A stretch of DNA of 64,000 bases from an uncultured Verrucomicrobiota bacterium (GTDB lineage Bacteria; Verrucomicrobiota; Kiritimatiellia; CAIQIC01; Lenti-01), in the NCBI GenBank assembly GCA_964526745.1, contig CAZGMQ010000009.1:929-64928 (forward strand), written 5' to 3'. A model generated the notes under the pieces. It did not search any database. It saw only the letters and a list, made by a program, of their open reading frames with translations, and was not told where the DNA came from. Below, piece by piece: positions 3,001 through 53,345 of this stretch. The translations under genes and the position numbers were made by a program. How positions within the stretch are numbered: position 1 is the first letter of the stretch; each line of letters begins with the position of its first letter.

Positions 3001-4905
3001 AGCATAGTTGGTGGGCGTGTCCTGGCGTCCAATTACAAGGCAGTCCCGGGATGCAATCGTTCCAGAAAGGGCGATGTCTACAGAAGCGGTGAGAGAGCTG
3101 TTGTTATATTGCTGGAGCACGTAGTTTTGTGCAGACAAGTCGAGATTGGAAAGGGTGCCGTTGAAGATTTCAATAGCCTTATTGTTTCCGGTGCCTTCGA
3201 TATATTGGGAGATGAATACACCGGCAGGGGGAAGGGGGGGGGGAGCGTTTGAAACGGTCTTTCCACTGGTGATGGACCAGTCCGGAGCAAACGTGGCAAA
3301 GTCGGTCAATTCCCCCCAGGTGTCAAAGTTCTGGGAGCGACTCGCGACTGAGCGCATCTCTGCGTCGTCCACCTGCATCGAACCGGTTGTTCCTGCGCCG
3401 GAGCACAGGAAGAGGACATGGGCTTGGGTTGCCTCTTCGGGGGCAATTCCTTCGGCGGCATATTGCACCCAGGCAGCGGAAAGGGATGGGATGTTCTCGA
3501 TGACGGTGCCGCCCAGCGGTCCATTCGTGGCATTCAGCCATTCGATTTTGATCTGCATGACGGAAGCCGTCCAGTCCGGCGTGGCTTTAAACCAGGCGGC
3601 AGCGCGATAGTTGAGGCCGGGTGTCACCGGCACATCCTGCGCAAAAGAACCATAGTCAGTGCGTTCTGGATACCACTGTCCCTCAATACTTCCGCACCAG
3701 TTGCCGGAATGCGGGAGATAGGTGTCGGCCACACTCTTGGGCCAGGCCTGCCAGGTGCCCCAGTCCACGGCATCGCCGCCATCGGGCAGTGTGGTTTCTT
3801 CAAAGCCGGGATTCGACAACAGGTTGATGCCTGAGGCTTCCGTATAGAGTTCCCGGAAGCTGAAGGCCCCGGTTTGATGATCGAATTGGATTCGATACCG
3901 TCCCGGCACCACGCCGGTCATTTCCACATAGGTCGTCAAACCAGTTTCCATTGTTCCCGAGACCGGCAAGGCAATGGACGTCCCGTTGGTGGCACCCCAG
4001 ATCCGGAGGGCATCGTTGGCGGCAAAGCGCAGGGTCACGGTGCCGCTGTTAGTCACGTAATGCTCCGACTGCCACAGGGTTTCCCCAATCTGCATCATGT
4101 TGGTCGGCGGGGTTTCGGTGGCCACAAAACTGCCCTGGGCGGTCATGGTGCTGATGGTGAATTCCTGCGTGGCGGTCTGGGTGATGCTGAAGGTAGCATT
4201 GCTGGTGTCCAGCTGGAACAGGAAGGTTCCGGGATTCGTAGAGATGTCGGCCAGAGTGAAATCGGACAGTCCGCAAGCATTGGCGTCGGTGACCGGGAGG
4301 CTGCTGTAAGTGGTCGGGGTGGAAGCACCCCATTGTGCATTCTCATCCTCATTAGGGCGAAATTGAAATGTGGTACCCGTTTGCAGATCAACAGATCCAC
4401 TCCATAGATTGGTGTTGTCGATGCTGTTGGTTAGAATGCTGTTTCCAGAGGGGGTTCCGCTGTTGAAGCCGCCTACCAGCGCCATGTTCGTGATGGACGG
4501 CAGCGGAAGCGGCGAAGCACCCGCCCAATCCATTTGGAATTCAAGCGTCTCATCATTGAAGGTGAACTGATAGAGGCCGGGCGTTAGACCGGAAAAGTTG
4601 AGATTAGCAAGTGTTTGAGGAGTAGTGGGTCCGCTGCCTGGCACGCGGGCGACCGTTACGCTGCCTCCCCAGCTGATTTCCCAGGTTCCGTTGGCGGCAA
4701 ATTTGAATTCGCCGCCGGCCGATGTGATTTCCTGAGTGCACTGCCAGGTGTTGTCTGCAATGAGGGTCATGTTGGGGGTCGTGTCCCATGAATTAGTGAA
4801 CGCCCCGCCCGCCACCGCCATAGAGGAATAGGGAGACGACTGGGCGTGGGCGTTTAACGCGCATCCCAGCAAGACCCATCCAATGATTCCAGCTCTACTC
4901 CTCAT
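1..4905 (-). CDS. Giant secreted surface protein, partial; at least 1635 aa within the window and open through position 1. Signal peptide, at least two lamin-tail-domain (LTD)-like segments and CBM4/9-like modules.
   Basis: Manual minus-strand translation from the ATG at 4905 (MRSRAGIIGWVLLGCALNAHAQ...) is open to position 1 in the frame with end mod 3 = 0. LTD-like motifs: ISQYIEGTGNNKAIEIFNGT...LSGTI and VWINEIAY...EFIELCG..DISGWSIEL. A CBM-like NLLSNPGFEE motif is present. The supplied ORF track has no minus ORF in this frame; it appears to drop ORFs that run off the window edge. Confidence 0.75.
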   Translation of the reverse strand, partial: MRSRAGIIGWVLLGCALNAHAQSSPYSSMAVAGGAFTNSWDTTPNMTLIADNTWQCTQEITSAGGEFKFAANGTWEISWGGSVTVARVPGSGPTTPQTLANLNFSGLTPGLYQFTFNDETLEFQMDWAGASPLPLPSITNMALVGGFNSGTPSGNSILTNSIDNTNLWSGSVDLQTGTTFQFRPNEDENAQWGASTPTTYSSLPVTDANACGLSDFTLADISTNPGTFLFQLDTSNATFSITQTATQEFTISTMTAQGSFVATETPPTNMMQIGETLWQSEHYVTNSGTVTLRFAANDALRIWGATNGTSIALPVSGTMETGLTTYVEMTGVVPGRYRIQFDHQTGAFSFRELYTEASGINLLSNPGFEETTLPDGGDAVDWGTWQAWPKSVADTYLPHSGNWCGSIEGQWYPERTDYGSFAQDVPVTPGLNYRAAAWFKATPDWTASVMQIKIEWLNATNGPLGGTVIENIPSLSAAWVQYAAEGIAPEEATQAHVLFLCSGAGTTGSMQVDDAEMRSVASRSQNFDTWGELTDFATFAPDWSITSGKTVSNAPPPLPPAGVFISQYIEGTGNNKAIEIFNGTLSNLDLSAQNYVLQQYNNSSLTASVDIALSGTIASRDCLVIGRQDTPTNYAPDAAISDLDNLFTNKNLTFNGDDVIVLRQDGTIKDRVGQVSSKATGSLWSRNTTDHTLTRKSTIETGTVTSATEEFPLLDEWEISNQDTFTDLGSHEIHYEVYNPGGYSLIMDTGATLMSGELSGGIGDVSFWYRTESMTPAVTLVMETAISDSGPWSNVVTLTDSTSDFTYYVVAVNRSDHMWVRFRQTDAGTNRFRIDEITVTELSDVKRLEDFSGWTDPAYQTLGNYSRYSWSLQGKIAPTSGLYGTQAALITPPDGSVLSPAYALGVGELIFWTKSYDPEDPAYLLLQTSIDGGTNWFTQGSFTAGNATTYTTWLYLTNNPSQARIIFDPAKESGDTLLDSIEVRVPALYRDQDFDGWPLKRYYSSGTASHQGWGLSNCIVDAPYAYSGMAALLNQTTDGSAWIGSPYLPDGIGSISFRMRLTNSSSANISLQVQVSAKGVSWNTIDTFTATSSDSVQFQLYREDTTNHFVRFVHSAGGAAVPIDDIQIGSPQPRPEVSISPNTDPATPSTNDTVQITADIVTRYGASILSVTGHYKIASSLSFTPVAMTPVAYGSYASISSIPALPPSVTVQYYVTVQYTGIGAAPASTGFSTNLTPSLTNSYQISSVQQGDVWINEIAYLAYNVEFFEEDHEFIELCGVAGSDISGWSIELAFGADADIAANSNQPVYATYPISSHTFTNQTNGFSFYVLGDQQLLDAGEPIDEVLTVLVPPIAENWGFNHVADNRGVIRLLNEYGNLVYSISYAGSASGSESIPTKQLSYDTNSVNLGVEGSIYEQFTSWSLEGFSIGEINYGQTLIPTGSIELAMVWHIPSLLITPLNTNVVPPFTMLDPLGAQNHDSLGIHYGYSTTNYDFPNGTLYYRQSGYPSWSSLPMSIRQGSIDSNNDAYVAATIPIRAFTRGTTIEYVIQANPNETGISTAYIGLDTTNDFELFETLSEAQAMPFVFTYTIRSSIYITNMSTNATSWIFHTDGNDIIEPFVNFNVQVNTNALTQY

Positions 4906-5399
4906 GGCCACCTCTATTGTTAGGGAGAAGTTTCGTTTCTTCCCATCTCAACCATACTTCTTTTGAATAGCGCTGGCAAGGGGTTGCAGGCTCTCAGTGG
5001 CCTCTTTTTCACCCTGAATCGGCGAAAGGAAAGGGAAAGTCCTTAACTATTAATATTTATACTTATCCATATTTACTGCAATGAATTATATGAATTTTAA
5101 TCCAAATGGCCTGAAATCATTAAAATCCGCATTTTAGTGCTGCAATGGCTTAAAATAGATCAAAAGAGGCCTGGAAAGCGTCGAAAATGCCAAAAATCAG
5201 ATCAAAACGCCTCTTTTTTGTTTTTTTGGCACTTTTGAGGGGGCTGACGCAGCAAAGGGCGCTCCAGGGGCGTTTTGGCAGGCGGAACTGCCTGCACCTC
5301 TTGTGGAAGTGAACGTTTCTTTATTCAACAATTCGACTGGTTTAGAGGAGGCAGGAAGTGTAGATTCATGGTGATGAATACCGCATTGGGAGCTACGTC

Positions 5400-6791
5400 A
5401 TGAAGAAATTGTTACTACTAAGTCTGATTTTCCTTTTTTGCGTAGGCACAATTGCTTTTGCACAGGCCACGCTGCCAACCAGTCATTCCGGACCGTGGAA
5501 GGTGGGGCCGTTACCGTCGGGATGGACCCAGAACGGCTTGGGGAATGATTATAGCTCGGACTATGACAAGAGTGGGGAGAATGCGGCAAAATTCGACGGG
5601 TCGGGCGATACCCTTCAAATCAATTTTAGCGGTGCGGCAAGCGCAGTGTCCTATTGGACTAAGGGGAATAGCTTATCGGGGGCTTATACCTATAAAATCC
5701 AGGAGTCGGTTGATGGTTCAACTTGGACGGATGTGGTCACCTATAATAGTGGGAACCCTATATCAGGAACGGCAACCCAGTACGAACAGGACTTGCTGTC
5801 ATCCTCTCGCTACCTCAAGTTTCTTTATGTGAACAAGGACAACGGTAACGTGGGCCTTGATGGGGTTACGATTGCAGGATCTGGAGTTTCGTTTATTCCA
5901 TCTGGCGCCCAAAGCATTCCGGTGAGTTATACGCTGTCGCTGGGGATTTCGATTACACCGGCAGGTAGCACGATGCAGAGCTGGACTTTCCTGCCTTCGA
6001 ACTATGCCGGGACGGTAAGCATGTCTGCTGATACCTTCAACTTCACGCCCGCCGAAGCCGATGATGGAAACGTTTATACGCTACAGGTCATTTCGATGAA
6101 CCCGGTCAGCACGGGATCGGTGGACGTTACGGTGACCTCCTATGTGCTGCCTGATCCATATATATGTACCTTTGAAGATGGTAGTAAATCAGGTTATGCC
6201 GCTGATATTGTGGAGTTAAACGACAAGTGGTGGAATCTGGACGGGATTTTGATTGGGACGACTGAAGATGACAAAAAAATTGGAAACAAGTCGGCTCGCT
6301 TAAAATACACGCCGGAGGATGGGGTAGACGCGATGACAGTCCAGTCGAAGGTCCTTGCTAACGGTATTGGAAATATTTCGATGTGGTATGGCCCCTATGG
6401 CGAGCACGGAAGCAATGCCCCCACCCTTGCCATCGAAATCAGCGAGAATTTGGTATCCGGCTGGATTGAAGTGGGTCAAGTGGACGCAGGGGCAGTGACG
6501 AATCTGACCGAATATTCGACGGATGTTGATGTGAATGTACCCGTTTATGTTCGAATTCGCGGAGTCGGTGGTACGGAGGATAATAGTGCCAACTTTGATA
6601 ATATCACCATCACCCCTTATCAGGCAGCAACGGGTTATGAGGCCTTCCTTCTGGAGTACAATGTGACGCCGGGGGATCCGGGAACGGCGACGGGCGATGA
6701 TCTGGATGACGACGGGTGGACGAACCAGCAGGAGTTCGATGATTATCCTACCAATTCCTACAATCCGTACGACAAAGCGATTCATCCGTAA
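5400..6791 (+). CDS. Secreted hypothetical protein with a signal peptide and an acidic Ca-binding-like C-terminus (DDLDDDGW...); low-GC gene.
   Basis: ORF track. N-terminus MKKLLLLSLIFLFCVGTIAFAQA. A GGGAG Shine-Dalgarno lies upstream. Coding GC is visibly lower than its neighbours. AT-rich repeat regions flank it on both sides. Confidence 0.6.
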   Translation: MKKLLLLSLIFLFCVGTIAFAQATLPTSHSGPWKVGPLPSGWTQNGLGNDYSSDYDKSGENAAKFDGSGDTLQINFSGAASAVSYWTKGNSLSGAYTYKIQESVDGSTWTDVVTYNSGNPISGTATQYEQDLLSSSRYLKFLYVNKDNGNVGLDGVTIAGSGVSFIPSGAQSIPVSYTLSLGISITPAGSTMQSWTFLPSNYAGTVSMSADTFNFTPAEADDGNVYTLQVISMNPVSTGSVDVTVTSYVLPDPYICTFEDGSKSGYAADIVELNDKWWNLDGILIGTTEDDKKIGNKSARLKYTPEDGVDAMTVQSKVLANGIGNISMWYGPYGEHGSNAPTLAIEISENLVSGWIEVGQVDAGAVTNLTEYSTDVDVNVPVYVRIRGVGGTEDNSANFDNITITPYQAATGYEAFLLEYNVTPGDPGTATGDDLDDDGWTNQQEFDDYPTNSYNPYDKAIHP

Positions 6792-7213
6792 TCGCCCCAA
6801 AATTTCCAAAAAATAGCCAAAAATAGGCAAAATGTGCCTTAAAATGGCCAAAAATAGCTGAAAATAGCCAAAATTGGCCCCCAAGCGCCTGAAAAGCATC
6901 CAATAGGATGGATTTTCACCACAGAGCGCAGAGAACACAAAAACAGAGATTAGCTCAACGGATTCATATGAGTGGGCCGCCAGTGCTTTTCTATGTGATT
7001 TTTGTGATTTTTGTGCCAATTTAAGGAATTGGGAGGCCAAAATGGTCATTTTGACGCCAAAAACAGCTAAATTTGAGGATTTCGGCCTGTTTTAGCTCAT
7101 GCAGCGAGAGTATGGACTGAAGTTTCGGAAGATGTGGCGGCGCAATAAGTCTGGTTTAGCTTAAACCCGGTCTACCGGTTGATTTTCCGTTAAACTTTGG
7201 TATCCTAAACAGG

Positions 7214-26480: not shown

Positions 26481-28205
26481 CTAGATCCGGTCCGGAGTAT
26501 CGATGCCCAGCAGGGAAAGCCCGTTGCGCAGGACTTTCGCGGTGAGATCGCATAGGCGGACCCGGCTTTCACGGATGCCGGCTTCGGCTTTCAGGAAAGG
26601 CACATTCTGATAGAAGGAGGAGTACACCTGAGACAGTTCATAGAGCGCATCAGCGAGGAGGGAGGGCTTTTCCTGCGTGGCGGCATCGAGGACAGCATCC
26701 GGGAACCGCGCCAGGCGGATCCCCAGGCGTCGGGCAAAAGGATTATCGAGGGCAATCGATTCGCTCATGAAATCGAAGTCGGGGAAGCGTTCGGCGTGTT
26801 TGTCGCGGACCGAGGCGATGCGGGCGTGGGCATATTGGAGATAGGGGGCGGAGTTGCCATCCATCGCCAGGGCCTTTTCCCAGGTGAAGCTAACCGCCGA
26901 TTGTGGATTTTGTGACAGGTCGGCATATTTGACAGCGCCGATTCCGATGGCCCGGGCTACAGCCTGCTGCTGCTCTTCGGGCATGTCGCCGGAGGTTTTC
27001 TGAACCAGTTCCAAGGCATGTTTCTCCGCTTCATCCAACAGCAGGTCGAGTTTGATGGCCGTACCTTTTCGGCTGGAGAGCAACCCCTCGGGCAGGCGCA
27101 TCAGGCCGAACCAGATATGACGCAGCGGGGTGGTGGCGCCGGCTTGCTTCGCCAAGGTAAAGAACTGGCGGAAGTGGAGCTGCTGGCGCTCGTCGGTGAC
27201 ATAGATGATGGCGTCCGGGTTGAATTCTTTTTCGCGGGAGAATACCGTCGCGATATCGGTTGTGGCGTAGTTGAACCCGCCGTCCGACTTGCGGATAATA
27301 CAAGGCGGGAGCTTTTCTTCCTCATCCAGGAAGGCGACGAGGGCACCTTCGCTTTCCCGAATGAGCCCCAGAGATTGGAGTTTATCGACGACGCCGGGCA
27401 GCGCGTCGTTATAGAAGGACTCACCGCGAACGAGCTCAAAGGAAACGCCCAGCCGGCCATAGACGCGGTTGAACTCCGTCATGGAAAGATCGATGAAGGT
27501 CTGCCAGAGGGCGCGGTTTTCCGGGTCGCCAGCCTGCAGTTTGACCAGTTCAGCGCGGGCCTGATCCTTCCATTCCGGGTCTTCTTCGCATTTTTGGTGC
27601 GACAGGACATAGATGCGTTGCAGTTCATCAACCGGGGAGGCTTCCAACAGGGCTGGGTCCATGAAGTTGCGGTAGCCCATGATCAGGATGCCGAACTGGG
27701 TGCCCCAGTCCCCGAGATGGTTATCGCCCAGCACGGTATAGCCGAGGGCGGCATGGATGCGTTTAAGGGCATCGCCGATCACGGTGGAGCGGATGTGGGC
27801 GATATGCATCGGTTTCGCGACATTGGGAGAAGAGTAATCGACCAGCAGGGTTTTTCCGGTGCCGACTTGTGGGATGCCCAGATGGGCATCCGCCTGCTCG
27901 GCTTCCAGCTGGCGGGCCAGGGCCTCTTCGGAAAGGGTCAGGTTGATGAATCCGGGACCGGCAATCTCCACCTTGCTCAGCAGCCCGCCGGTCGACAGCT
28001 GTGCGACTACTTTTTCAGCGATGGTCCGCGGTGCACTGCGGAGCGCTTTGGCGGCGGCCATGGCCGCGTTGCACTGATAGTCACCGAAGGATTCATCCAC
28101 GGAAGGGGTCACCGTCAGATTCAATGTCGACAGGTCGGCTTCTGGAAAGGCCGCAGCAAAAGCGGTGTGAATCTGGGCGGATAGGATTTCTTTAATCGTT
28201 TGCAT
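26481..28205 (-). CDS. argS: Arginine--tRNA ligase.
   Basis: 574 aa class I synthetase with an HIGH-type motif (PNVAKPMHIAHIRS) and an ArgS-like N-terminal additional domain and C-terminal DALR-like domain. Confidence 0.85.
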   Translation of the reverse strand: MQTIKEILSAQIHTAFAAAFPEADLSTLNLTVTPSVDESFGDYQCNAAMAAAKALRSAPRTIAEKVVAQLSTGGLLSKVEIAGPGFINLTLSEEALARQLEAEQADAHLGIPQVGTGKTLLVDYSSPNVAKPMHIAHIRSTVIGDALKRIHAALGYTVLGDNHLGDWGTQFGILIMGYRNFMDPALLEASPVDELQRIYVLSHQKCEEDPEWKDQARAELVKLQAGDPENRALWQTFIDLSMTEFNRVYGRLGVSFELVRGESFYNDALPGVVDKLQSLGLIRESEGALVAFLDEEEKLPPCIIRKSDGGFNYATTDIATVFSREKEFNPDAIIYVTDERQQLHFRQFFTLAKQAGATTPLRHIWFGLMRLPEGLLSSRKGTAIKLDLLLDEAEKHALELVQKTSGDMPEEQQQAVARAIGIGAVKYADLSQNPQSAVSFTWEKALAMDGNSAPYLQYAHARIASVRDKHAERFPDFDFMSESIALDNPFARRLGIRLARFPDAVLDAATQEKPSLLADALYELSQVYSSFYQNVPFLKAEAGIRESRVRLCDLTAKVLRNGLSLLGIDTPDRI

Positions 28206-28216
28206 AGCAACCTTAA

Positions 28217-28627
28217 CTACGAATCACGCGAATGACACGAATCGGGATCATTTACGAAGCGTTCGTATTCGAGTTTTTTATTATGTCCAAAGTTAACCAA
28301 AAGGGCGAGTTTTCGGTCAGTGGCCTTCAGGTAATTGATGGTTTGGGCGCGGTGTTCATCTGCCAAATTCCTTACTGCTTTGATCTCAATAATAATATTA
28401 TCAAAGCATAGAAAATCAGGAACGTAACCTTGTTTTAAAGACTTTCCTTTATAGATCAGATGAACAGGTGGCTGTTCTCTAAAGGGAATATTCTGCTCGG
28501 AGAACTCCATGGAAAGGCATTCTTGATAAACGGCTTCAAGAAAACCACAGCCCATCTGATTATAGACTTCAAAACAGGCCCCGATAATCTTATAGCTTTC
28601 GTCTTTGAAAATGAGATTAGATTTCAT
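28217..28627 (-). CDS. GxxExxY-family protein.
   Basis: GACFEVYNQMGCGFLEAVYQECL motif. Its last 9 codons lie inside the left flanking inverted repeat. Confidence 0.7.
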   Translation of the reverse strand: MKSNLIFKDESYKIIGACFEVYNQMGCGFLEAVYQECLSMEFSEQNIPFREQPPVHLIYKGKSLKQGYVPDFLCFDNIIIEIKAVRNLADEHRAQTINYLKATDRKLALLVNFGHNKKLEYERFVNDPDSCHSRDS

Positions 28628-28652
28628 TTCGTGTTATTCGCATTATTCGTAG
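28218..28652. mobile_element. Possible mini-element: the GxxExxY ORF bounded by imperfect 25-27 bp terminal inverted repeats.
   Basis: Left repeat CTACGAATCACGCGAATGACACGAATC (28218-28244). Reverse complement of the right repeat: CTACGAATAATGCGAATAACACGAA (28628-28652). Confidence 0.45.
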
Positions 28653-28658
28653 TTTTTT

Positions 28659-29450
28659 TCAGCAGTCGGCGAATTCGCTGACGCGGTCCGGATGGGTCGC
28701 CAGAATGCGAATATGGTCCAGTCCGACAGAGGCCAAGTGGCTGCGAACTGTGTGGAGGGCAAGGTCGATCCGGTTGCAGTCCTTGCTGAGATGAGCCAGG
28801 AAGACCTGTTGGAGGGAGTCGCCGGCAATCTCCGCAAGGAGTGCGGCCGCCGTTTCATTGGACAAATGACCCTGCCGGCCGGTAATCCGCTGCTTGAGCG
28901 ACCAGGGGCGCGGTGAATTCTGCACCATGTCCTCATCATGGTTGGCTTCCAGGACAATCAGCTGACAGCCCCGGAGTCGTTCCCGGATCAGCTGAGTGGG
29001 CATGCCGAGATCGGTGGCAATGCCCAAACGGGCTGGACCGCAGGATAGAATGAATCCAACGGGATCATAGGCATCATGCGGCAGCGGAAAGGGAAGCAGT
29101 TCAATATCGCCGATTTGAAATGGAGAGCCATTGCTAAAGAGATTCCATTCCAGGGCTTCAGTGCCGCGTACCGCTCGTGCCGTATCGCCGTTGGCATAGA
29201 GTTTCAGTTTTAGATTTTTGCACAACACCCGAATCCCGGCGGTGTGGTCGCTGTGCTCGTGGGACACACAGATGGCGCTGAGTTTGGCTGGATCGAGACC
29301 GGCTTCTGTCATTCGGCGCAGCGTCTCCTTGGCGGAGATGCCGGCATCAATCAGGAGGGCGGTATCGGCACTCTCGATATGGATGCAGTTTCCGCTGCTG
29401 CCGGAGGCAAGCACGCAGATGCGCAATGGACTGGCAAGAGAATCGGGCAC
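28659..29450 (-). CDS. MBL-fold metallo-hydrolase.
   Basis: ICVLASGSSGNC...HEHSDHTAG beta-lactamase-fold motifs. Start uncertain (a GTG near 29450); the ORF-track 5' extension overlaps parA. Confidence 0.6.
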   Translation of the reverse strand: MPDSLASPLRICVLASGSSGNCIHIESADTALLIDAGISAKETLRRMTEAGLDPAKLSAICVSHEHSDHTAGIRVLCKNLKLKLYANGDTARAVRGTEALEWNLFSNGSPFQIGDIELLPFPLPHDAYDPVGFILSCGPARLGIATDLGMPTQLIRERLRGCQLIVLEANHDEDMVQNSPRPWSLKQRITGRQGHLSNETAAALLAEIAGDSLQQVFLAHLSKDCNRIDLALHTVRSHLASVGLDHIRILATHPDRVSEFADC

Positions 29451-51555: not shown

Positions 51556-52515
51556 CTATCTTGCTGTGTGTAGAACCTTAAGAGAAACCATAAAGGGCTT
51601 CTTTCGATTGGCTGATGGATCAAATCGATCCGTGATATCCACATCGCCGCGCAGGTATGTTTTGCCGGCCAGAGCATCTGGAGAGATTGACGGATCCAGT
51701 ACCATCTTGATTCGATTCTGCGCATTCGCAAGGATTACGCTCCAGCCCTTGCTGCCGTCATCATAGTCGGCTGCCCGGATATCCATCGCCTGATTGTCGA
51801 CGGAGCGAACGGTTTCCTGCCTGTCCACTGGCGGCATATCAAGAGGAACTTCTGATATGGATTCTTTGGGGATTGTGGCAGATTCACCACCCGTCATGCC
51901 AATTTGGATATTGTCGCCACCTGAACGCTGAGCAGGATGAAGCAGCTTGACCGTGTCCTCTGCCATTCTACGTTCATCAAACCGAGCGGCCTCAATGATG
52001 CTGACTACATCCCCGGCTTTGATTGCTGCAGAATCTCCGATGTTGATGATCGTATTATTGTTAAAACCCATCGGAGCACTTTTGGCGGTAAACTGATCTC
52101 GAAGACAGCCTCCGAAATAGCCGCTGCCCACAATGATTCCTCCAATCACAACCCATGGAACAATAGGATGAATATCCGCAAGCGATTTCACATGGAGCCT
52201 CTTTCTAATCTCCGCAATATTTCTGTCCATGGCCTTTTTGGATCCAAAAAACAGTTTGACCAGGATGTCTTCCGTAAATGGGCTTTGGTGGGTGATTTCA
52301 TTGAGAACCGGAACTGCGTATGCTTTTCTCATACCCGTTGAAAGCGAGTCAAGGACAATTGGAACTCTGTTAATAAAGCGCTCCAAGGCAACAAGCGAAT
52401 CCGCTGCATCTTGTAAAGAGAGCAGCGGAACATCATATCGGATTGAAATTGGCCACTCCGTTGCAATCACGCCACGACCACCGGACAGAAGGGCTTTTCT
52501 TGTCGATTTTCTCAT
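51556..52515 (-). CDS. Hypothetical single-TM protein.
   Basis: ORF track; TM segment IHPIVPWVVIGGIIVGSGYFGG. Confidence 0.4.
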   Translation of the reverse strand: MRKSTRKALLSGGRGVIATEWPISIRYDVPLLSLQDAADSLVALERFINRVPIVLDSLSTGMRKAYAVPVLNEITHQSPFTEDILVKLFFGSKKAMDRNIAEIRKRLHVKSLADIHPIVPWVVIGGIIVGSGYFGGCLRDQFTAKSAPMGFNNNTIINIGDSAAIKAGDVVSIIEAARFDERRMAEDTVKLLHPAQRSGGDNIQIGMTGGESATIPKESISEVPLDMPPVDRQETVRSVDNQAMDIRAADYDDGSKGWSVILANAQNRIKMVLDPSISPDALAGKTYLRGDVDITDRFDPSANRKKPFMVSLKVLHTAR

Positions 52516-52691
52516 CTATTTCCTTTCGCTAATCTACTGGCCATCGCTCTATACTCCGGCACTGCTGGCCTTTTGGCCGGGTGGGTCCTTCCATCCCGCT
52601 ATTCAACCTTCGACGTTGAAGATGCCATTGCAATAGGGGCAGATGTTTTCGCCGCTGTGGAGAATGGTTCTCCTGATAGGTTTCGATTCCG

Positions 52692-53345
52692 TTATCGGTG
52701 CCATGTGACCGGATAGGCCTTCTCTTTGCCATTAACGATTACAAACACTTCCGGATATTCTTCATCTCCTGAAATTTCTTCCTTTTCTTTTCTCCCGCCA
52801 GAAGCGAGGTAAATTTCCTTTTGGAAATCCCCGAATCGAACAATGGCGCGCAAATTTGATGCGGTTTTGTTTTTGATGCTAAATGAAATTCTATATACTC
52901 CGCCGGCAACCCGCCGAAGGTTCGAAAACCCCTGGCCTGTGATGCTGGAGTCGGTGAGGTATGCGCTAACCCCACTGATATTCTTCACGGACCTGTCTTT
53001 TACGCCGAGGATGTTAAATACATAAACCGGGAATTCCTGTTTGGATTGTGCCGCCCGTCGGGACGAAATAGATTTATTGTACCGCGATCGCGCCTGTTGC
53101 ACAGAGGCCCGATATTGGGTTGCTTTTGCAGGATCGTATCCGAAACGTTGTTGCATATCCGATGGGAGTTCCTGGAAAAATAGTTTGGCTATGCCGCCAG
53201 AGTGCATGACGGTTATTCCGTCTGGCTCTGCCCTGGTTATTTTAACGTTTTTGTAAACCGTGCCGAGCATGTTGGTTATATTGTCGGCCATCGCCAATGA
53301 CAGGCAAATGACGATAGCGAATATGGTGCAAAGCATGAGTTTCAT
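52692..53345 (-). CDS. Secreted hypothetical protein.
   Basis: Signal peptide MKLMLCTIFAIVICLSLAMA. Confidence 0.45.
   Translation of the reverse strand: MKLMLCTIFAIVICLSLAMADNITNMLGTVYKNVKITRAEPDGITVMHSGGIAKLFFQELPSDMQQRFGYDPAKATQYRASVQQARSRYNKSISSRRAAQSKQEFPVYVFNILGVKDRSVKNISGVSAYLTDSSITGQGFSNLRRVAGGVYRISFSIKNKTASNLRAIVRFGDFQKEIYLASGGRKEKEEISGDEEYPEVFVIVNGKEKAYPVTWHR

Follow-up and report, generated by a model that had tools for sequence, protein, structure and literature searches.

REPtrons and TIRtrons are elements in which a gene for a RAYT or TIRYT tyrosine transposase is flanked by REPs or TIRs, and these repeats also form multi-copy REPIN or TIR families (PMC3733652; PMC3116915). RAYTs have been described as vertically inherited single-copy genes. 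A second type of compact element is the intervening sequence (IVS) in the 23S rRNA of Coxiella burnetii, which is 428 nt long, carries an S23p ORF in its loop and is closed at its ends by a stem of 28 bp that contains a mismatch and a bulge; the ATG is preceded by three heptamers in tandem, the RNA is cleaved by RNase III, and the element has been described as selfish and vertically retained (PMC4990558). The REPtrons and TIRtrons are the closest functional analogue of the cassette described here. Absence of a target-site duplication is typical of REP/RAYT-type elements. Small selfish PD-(D/E)XK nucleases occur among the free-standing or intron-borne homing endonucleases of the I-Ssp6803I type; conserved flanking repeats are, to our knowledge, no feature of homing endonuclease genes, and we know of no PD-(D/E)XK protein that acts as sole transposase.

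Here we describe a small nuclease gene that fills the loop of a palindrome between two protein-coding genes. It was found in a 64-kb window, by which we mean the whole stretch of DNA that was analysed (64,000 nucleotides). The features of the locus are as follows.

28215-28654, minus strand: whole cassette, arm to arm, between the MBL-fold gene and argS
28217-28627, minus strand: ORF of a GxxExxY-family PD-(D/E)XK nuclease, 136 aa, with the final 7-8 codons and the TAG stop inside the 3′ arm
28628-28654, minus strand: 5′ arm, preceding the ATG as read on the gene strand, AACTACGAAT-AATGCGAAT-AACACGAA, three 9-nt units
28215-28241, minus strand: 3′ arm, TTCGTGTCATTCGCGTGATTCGTAGTT, reverse complement of the 5′ arm at 24/27 bases, encoding the tail DSCHSRDS and the stop
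28559-28597, minus strand: helix 1 positions S11, I15 and N23, at which the residue varies with the type of repeat unit among members of the close subfamily
28526-28546, minus strand: name-giving GxxExxY motif, G28-F-L-E31-A-V-Y34
28379-28420, minus strand: predicted catalytic PD...ExK signature, with P70-D71 at 28415-28420, E81 at 28385-28387 and K83 at 28379-28381
28659-29450/29555, minus strand: MBL-fold hydrolase gene, upstream neighbour, its stop 31 nt before the cassette ATG
26481-28205, minus strand: argS, downstream neighbour, its ATG 11 nt past the cassette stop

A first-pass annotation had described a 136-aa GxxExxY ORF between argS and an MBL hydrolase gene, bracketed by inverted repeats of CGAAT triplets that abut the ends of the ORF, and this description is borne out. 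The arms are 27 nt long, each made of three 9-nt CGAAT units, 89% complementary and 386 nt apart. The last base of the 5′ arm directly precedes the ATG, and its outer end lies only 4 nt from the stop of the MBL-fold gene. At the other end the ORF reads through the 3′ arm, so that its gene-strand 3′ end is GAT TCG TGT CAT TCG CGT GAT TCG TAG TT. The pattern CTACGAAT-N3-GCGAAT-N3-ACGAA has exactly two matches in the window, which are the two arms, against 0.04 expected by chance; the repeats are not common local sequence. None of 100 shuffles of the window gave two matches of the three-unit arm pattern, and a looser three-unit pattern adds just three matches elsewhere in the window, each with two mismatches. 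The GC content drops across the cassette from about 0.60 to 0.39-0.41. The MBL-fold gene, the cassette and argS share a strand and are separated by spacers of 31 and 11 nt, and no promoter- or terminator-like matches were found. It had also been proposed that further GxxExxY genes or CGAAT repeats be sought; the window holds no second copy, no further arm and no solo hairpin. The identical protein is encoded on 14 metagenome contigs, with the same gene context in all 10 contigs among the matches listed. By its named argS relatives the source organism belongs to Kiritimatiellia.

The ORF matches Pfam PF13366 (PDDEXK_3; E=4.9e-42, 143.4 bits against a cut-off of 22) and NCBIfam TIGR04256 ('GxxExxY protein'; E=5.7e-43, 146 bits against a cut-off of 35); these are its sole matches in Pfam and NCBIfam, with no HUH/Y1 transposase domain. 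G28-F-L-E-A-V-Y34, P70-D71, E81 and K83 are all present in columns that are invariant or nearly so in an alignment of 27 homologs, D71, E81 and K83 being invariant. An AF2 model (mean pLDDT 65) has a helix at residues 9-25. Foldseek comparison of this model with the PDB ranked lambda exonuclease, Cas4 SSO0001, EndA and Hjc at the top, which are PD-(D/E)XK-fold proteins, all at E>0.03; these matches are weak and generic, and therefore no specific functional analogue can be named. A PDB sequence search gave no match, no PADLOC defence-protein family matched at E<=0.1, and PHROGs gave a single marginal 'endonuclease' match (E=9e-4). Among orthologous cassettes dN/dS is 0.05-0.07, which indicates strong purifying selection on the ORF. 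The PF13366/TIGR04256 family is large, with 14,220 50%-identity representatives at E<=1e-3. A survey of PD-(D/E)XK proteins lists PF13366 as 'Unknown ... multiple transfers' (PMC3424549). The incomplete part of the literature that we covered, outside which an earlier description may exist, mentions GxxExxY, PF13366 or TIGR04256 rarely and nowhere links the family to REP, REPIN, MITE or other repeats. The cassette type is thus apparently undescribed, a variant akin to REPtron and MITE elements.

The same architecture recurs across the gene family. In 71 homolog loci taken from one-genome-per-species contigs, with hosts that include Verrucomicrobiota, Planctomycetota, Acidobacteriota, Latescibacterota, Gemmatimonadota, Chloroflexi and Desulfobacterota, a flanking inverted repeat scoring at or above the cut-off of 14 is found at 55, against 1/71 when the maximum of 20 shuffles is taken. 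The ORF lies inside R...rcR in 40 of the 68 evaluable loci and between two complete hairpins in 7, and only 2 have no array. More distant examples, with 37-40% protein identity, also have three-unit arms, here with CACAGAG units; these are a Bacteroides finegoldii locus (radA-GxxExxY-FAD protein) and a Bernardetia locus (ade-GxxExxY-manC). The gene contexts of cassettes in different phyla are unrelated to one another, the neighbours being housekeeping genes. Close homologs (64-75% identical) share the C-terminal tail xS[RC]xS[RC]xS, because the ORF reads into the 3′ arm. The GC content of the ORF is more than 0.05 below that of its flanks in 65/71 loci (median difference -0.117). We regard it as very probable that this is a discrete nuclease-in-palindrome cassette found family-wide. 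An association typical of phages was considered and rejected, as only 2 homolog loci lie on viral contigs. Two copies are decayed with recognisable arms: one has an in-frame stop (L045, 40-426), and the other, on a viral contig, has several frameshifts or stops (L224, 1501-1811). In two further loci (L024, 2205-5156; L064, 2998-5961) the GxxExxY region continues into an ORF of about 985 aa despite the presence of a 5′ arm, which may mean that genes have fused or that a stop codon was lost, or may be an artefact of the way in which the ORFs were extended.

The anatomy of the arms is informative about what is conserved in them. The family consensus is AC[T/C]ACGAAA-NAC[G/A]CGAAA-NNC[A/G]CGAAA, that is, three 9-nt units of the form yACrCGAAA, the window locus being of the CGAAT type. 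Units differ between loci (CGAAA, CGAAT, CGGAA, GCAGA or CACAGAG), the variant is uniform over all six units of one locus, and the inter-unit base is free. At the variable unit positions (CGAAA/CGAAT/CGGAA, and T or C in the head) the two arms agree in 85-100% of loci, compared with 44-79% between loci, and at the inter-unit base, the first base of the unit, they agree in just 31-42%, which is approximately random. Direct units within one arm also covary, the fifth base being T/T in 8 cases, A/A in 42 and discordant in 2, and the third base G/G in 6, A/A in 45 and discordant in 1. As the units covary between direct repeats, base pairing cannot explain the covariation. An enrichment of sense-strand G.U pairs among arm mismatches was looked for and is absent (35 sense-strand G.U, 50 antisense, 69 of other types). 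Covariation in cis, a free inter-unit base and no G.U excess together make the arms look like arrays of recognition sites for a single sequence-specific factor, and the complementarity of the arms would then follow from their inverted arrangement.

The outer boundary of the arms is sharp, lying 5-7 nt past the first unit core, with an agreement of 0.79-0.97 up to 5 nt outside and random agreement beyond 8 nt. A locus-specific extension of the stem past the arm, apparent in a few loci, has no statistical support beyond -7. Structure prediction, which had been suggested for the arm pair, placed a terminal stem of 25 bp in the 461-nt RNA, in the MFE and centroid folds alike (z=-4.2), and juxtaposed arms folded as DNA are predicted to have single mismatches at the unit boundaries. 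Neither arms nor solo hairpins matched an Rfam family at the gathering score, the only hits being sub-threshold, generic miRNA-precursor hairpins. A target-site duplication was found in 0-1 of 33 loci for k>=3 at offsets of -2 to +2.

The identity of the units is correlated with that of the protein. Within the close subfamily, in raw counts that ignore kinship, residue 23 is N in 12/12 CGAAT loci and K or R in 44/45 CGAAA loci; the exceptions to this rule inside the subfamily are L050 and P0026. By the tail code, the best 120 homologs comprise 26 of the N/T type (26/27) and 54 of the K/A type (54/54), with one exception. Residue 11 is T in 9/9 loci with CGG or GCAG units, kinship again being ignored. 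The most informative positions, 11, 15 and 23, all lie in predicted helix 1 (residues 9-25 of the AF2 model, pLDDT 65). N-type proteins are distributed over at least 5 distinct NJ clades, and the distances among them are no shorter than those to K-types. A universal rule pairing N23 with T is rejected, since 4/4 more distant homologs (46-49% identical) with CGAAT-type units (CTAAT in one) carry K or R at position 23. The correlation is suggestive, and would fit a direct read-out of the units by the protein.

Repeats of the same kind also occur without the gene. In other genomes short hairpins (R, a gap of 6-46 nt, then rcR) are found beside the gene or in tandem, for example in L022, L030, L055, L056 and L062. 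A metagenome scan for the exact 19-base arm pattern of the window returned at least 120 stretches, and among the matches listed most are solo hairpins. A GxxExxY gene is present in only 6 of 120 hairpin-selected stretches among those listed (4 of the first 80). The gaps between adjacent plus and minus arrays are bimodal among the matches listed, with 113 below 50 nt and 45 at 350-450 nt. Again among the matches listed, 53 of 74 array pairs 150-1500 nt apart hold a GxxExxY gene, and no other recognisable cargo gene was found in any of the 74. Only 1 of 84 solo hairpins among those listed lies inside an ORF of at least 150 aa, though such ORFs make up 69% of the bases. Near-identical hairpins have unrelated flanks in 121 of 260 pairs among the matches listed, and the copies have therefore been dispersed.

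Hairpins with the exact 19-base arm pattern of the window were also found in Prevotella-like contigs, and thus in another phylum; one hairpin-rich contig of this kind encodes a sulfatase 79% identical to a Prevotella sp. protein. The Prevotella-like solo hairpins keep the C[GT]AAT motif and have lost complementarity. A search of PLSDB plasmids with the Prevotella-type hairpin gave no match. In five such contigs (L094, L102, L131, L157 and L210) one hairpin arm has CTAAT rather than CGAAT, so that complementarity is incomplete, and short AACTTTATG / CATAAAGTT and AAAGTTCAAAGTT motifs frequently border the solo hairpins. Tandem arrangements were seen elsewhere. At L056 (3430-4260) the last approximately 42 nt of a GxxExxY ORF and a complete GCAGA-type solo hairpin are repeated in about 5 tandem copies with a period of about 165 nt. 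At L109 (6313-7481), on a contig of 31% GC, 18 arms lie within 1.2 kb with a hairpin period of about 108 nt, adjoining a partial GxxExxY gene at the contig end.

Comparison of the argS-MBL junction in relatives, as had been proposed, revealed empty, swapped and occupied sites. The order Usp-ParA-MBL-GxxExxY-argS is common to L011, L013, L015 and L020, whose argS is 81-83% identical to that of the window, and ParA-MBL-GxxExxY-argS is also found in L213/214 and L217/218. At least 7 related lineages have the cassette at this MBL-argS site. The possibility that relatives carry the same gene without repeats had been raised against the first reading; the related genomes carry it with repeats. Since the position is shared across related lineages, the window copy is an old, vertically inherited resident rather than a recent insertion. 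In L211/L212 (argS 79% identical) the MBL gene runs straight into argS without a cassette, and this lineage nests among cassette-bearing ones in the argS tree. In the most distant relative examined (L215, 2580-3000; argS 74% identical), acpP is followed by 420 nt without a called gene, cassette or arms, and then by argS.

The site of L013 has a different history. Its argS is 94-95% identical to those of L015, L020 and L218, whereas its cassette is only 71% identical to theirs (71% against 94.6% in the comparison with L015); with L213 it shares 84% identity in the cassette and 82% in argS. Nucleotide identity between L013 and L015 is 0.91 in the left flank, 0.70 in the interior and 0.93 in the right flank, with the transitions at the arms, compared with 0.92, 0.93 and 0.92 in the control pair L015 and L020. 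This swap could have arisen by ordinary homologous recombination in the flanking genes, or could reflect an ancient polymorphism. In no genome were two non-orthologous sites seen to carry identical cassettes with the ORF. The cassette has been gained, lost and replaced, and its hairpins have been dispersed. The earlier proposal of a small selfish or mobile cassette is thus supported: the empty site, the swap, the architecture in other phyla and the dispersed hairpins mark out a discrete unit. The copy is not a recent insertion, however, and without a target-site duplication a classical TIR transposon is unsupported.

Like a REPtron, the cassette has a single nuclease-type gene between inverted copies of a short repeat, and in other genomes, with none in the 64-kb window, that repeat is also gene-less, intergenic, paired (hairpin-forming), clustered and multi-copy. 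The gene persists vertically at a fixed locus, the repeats sometimes overlap the gene ends, and target-site duplications are missing, as in REP/RAYT-type elements. The enzyme, however, is a PD-(D/E)XK nuclease of about 125 aa rather than an HUH/Y1 (IS200/IS605-like) tyrosine transposase. Each arm consists of three 9-nt direct units, whereas a REP is a 6-13-bp stem with an unpaired GTAG tag, and the GxxExxY gene usually lies inside one hairpin instead of between separate REPs. As in pairs of MITEs and autonomous TIR transposons, there are long ORF-bearing and short ORF-less forms with the same inverted termini, the short forms are dispersed, and presence is polymorphic (L211/L212 empty; L213/214, L217/218, L011, L013, L015 and L020 occupied). 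The termini are unlike those of TIR transposons and MITEs in being internally repetitive, and there is no DDE or other known transposase; without a target-site duplication (0-1/33 loci) the classical label of 'TIR transposon' is therefore unsupported. Homing, as by I-Ssp6803I, would be compatible with a single site that has occupied, empty and replaced alleles, but the cassette has no intron or intein context and its insertion sites differ between lineages.

Taken together, we think it rather probable that the window holds a resident copy of a widespread, compact selfish cassette, in which a nuclease gene occupies the loop of a palindrome and the nuclease recognises and mobilises the arms. The six units would be cis recognition sites of the encoded nuclease, as the covariation suggests, the ORF-bearing form would be the autonomous element, and the short hairpins would derive from it as non-autonomous forms, in the manner of REPtron and REPIN or of transposon and MITE. 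Spread may begin with cleavage by the nuclease, either at juxtaposed arms or between them, and proceed by repair or by copying from a template that bears the ORF; no staggered-cut integration would be involved, which would explain the missing target-site duplication. Alternatively, the element may be excised and inserted, again without a staggered cut. Both routes are conjectural. For the specific step in which the nuclease itself would read and mobilise the arms, we put the chances as even. The scarcity of the gene in the hairpin-selected stretches (6/120 among those listed) means that a host factor could maintain the hairpins. The window copy is old and would be co-transcribed with the MBL gene and argS; once transcribed, its arms would form a 25-bp stem around the ORF, directly next to the start codon. 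Because the ATG abuts the stem and no SD is present, the stem may damp translation, and on this structural model it probably keeps cassette expression low.

It has to be asked whether the system might instead be domesticated by its hosts, the hairpins serving as REP-like elements with a structural or regulatory role and GxxExxY being a nuclease or DNA-binding protein of benefit to the host, for example for hairpin or cruciform processing, with its own arms as autoregulatory operators and a cassette that is not mobile at present. Persistence at the same MBL-argS site in at least 7 lineages, strong purifying selection, and solo hairpins that among the matches listed are strictly intergenic and REP-like all agree with this, as does the vertical, single-copy inheritance described for RAYTs, the closest analogue; the covariation of units and residues would suit any model of cognate binding. 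It is harder to reconcile with an ORF whose GC content is systematically below that of the host, with the incongruence of cassette and host trees at L013 and the clean empty site in L211/L212, with the decayed copies L045 and L224, with cassettes in unrelated contexts between housekeeping genes of different phyla, or with the exact arm pattern of the window in another phylum, in Prevotella-like contigs. We therefore consider host domestication unlikely. An ordinary gene whose inverted repeat arose by chance or by some local event would fit the single copy in the window, but two arm matches against 0.04 expected and the same architecture in 55/71 homolog loci across phyla refute this, and we give it practically no weight.

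The element might also act at the RNA level, like the intervening sequences of 23S rRNA, with the stem of about 25 bp being cut by RNase III and the ORF excised from, or insulated in, the MBL-argS operon RNA. The resemblance to the Coxiella IVS is close, the architecture being almost identical (PMC4990558): a unit of about 430-440 nt, a small ORF that fills the loop, terminal inverted repeats of 25-28 bp with 1-3 imperfections, short tandem repeats immediately 5′ of the ATG and an SD that is poor or absent. The predicted terminal stem (z=-4.2) and the position of the cassette on the same strand as its neighbours, with short spacers and no promoter or terminator matches, point the same way. However, the cassette lies between the protein-coding genes MBL and argS and not in helix 45 of 23S rRNA, and its cargo is a predicted nuclease rather than the four-helix bundle of S23p. 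The sequence statistics of the cassette favour recognition of a motif over pairing: inter-unit positions are unconstrained, so pairing is not the conserved feature, units covary in cis in a way that a stem cannot explain, mismatches show no sense-strand G.U bias, and the Prevotella-like solo hairpins keep C[GT]AAT yet lose complementarity. No Rfam family was matched either. An RNA-level element is, in our judgement, quite improbable as the main explanation, although the stem would form physically anyway and an RNA-level role can therefore coexist with the selfish-cassette reading as a side effect.

The selfish-cassette reading can be extended, more tentatively. GxxExxY proteins and three-unit palindromes could form an unrecognised, phylum-spanning class of mobile or selfish elements in which helix 1 of a minimal PD-(D/E)XK nuclease reads the units and the intergenic hairpins that abound in Prevotella-like Bacteroidota are offspring; this is a real possibility, to which we give somewhat less than even weight. 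Under such a scheme N23 would go with T and K/R23 with A at the fifth base of the unit, T11 would go with G and S11 with A at the third base, and the variant-unit hairpins of Planctomycetota, Acidobacteriota and Verrucomicrobiota would likewise be non-autonomous offspring. If true, a protein family of more than 14,000 50%-identity clusters, at present unexplained, would gain a function, as would a likewise unexplained class of repeats in bacteria. The intergenic hairpins of Bacteroidota-like and PVC genomes, and those of Acidobacteriota with their variant units, would then have an origin, and the system would amount to a second, mechanistically independent long-lived intragenomic replicator of the REPIN/RAYT type. 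The coupling of gene and repeat (a sharp boundary, covarying units and gene-less derivatives) makes the function of the family directly testable, and should the residue-to-base correspondences hold, they would provide a compact sequence-reading nuclease scaffold.

Some further observations concern the DNA around the cassette. The window has other low-GC islands at 4850-5200, 6700-7050 and 52000-53200 (GC 0.39-0.47, against a window mean of 0.57), the first two of which bracket a secreted-protein-like ORF at 5400-6791 on the plus strand; having neither a GxxExxY homolog nor CGAAT arms, the islands were ruled out as related cassettes. In L217, where the MBL-cassette-argS site is occupied, a gene for a BglII/BamHI-type restriction endonuclease (1-293) is found upstream of it at a distance of about 2.2 kb. 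Just beyond the 5′ arm, at 28668-28677, is the palindrome GCGAATTCGC, which forms part of the MBL coding sequence at its 3′ end (..SEFA..) and is kept in cassette-bearing orthologs, the empty-site ortholog having GTGAATTTGGCGA instead. The GCGAAT hexamer that this palindrome shares with the arms is probably a coincidence.
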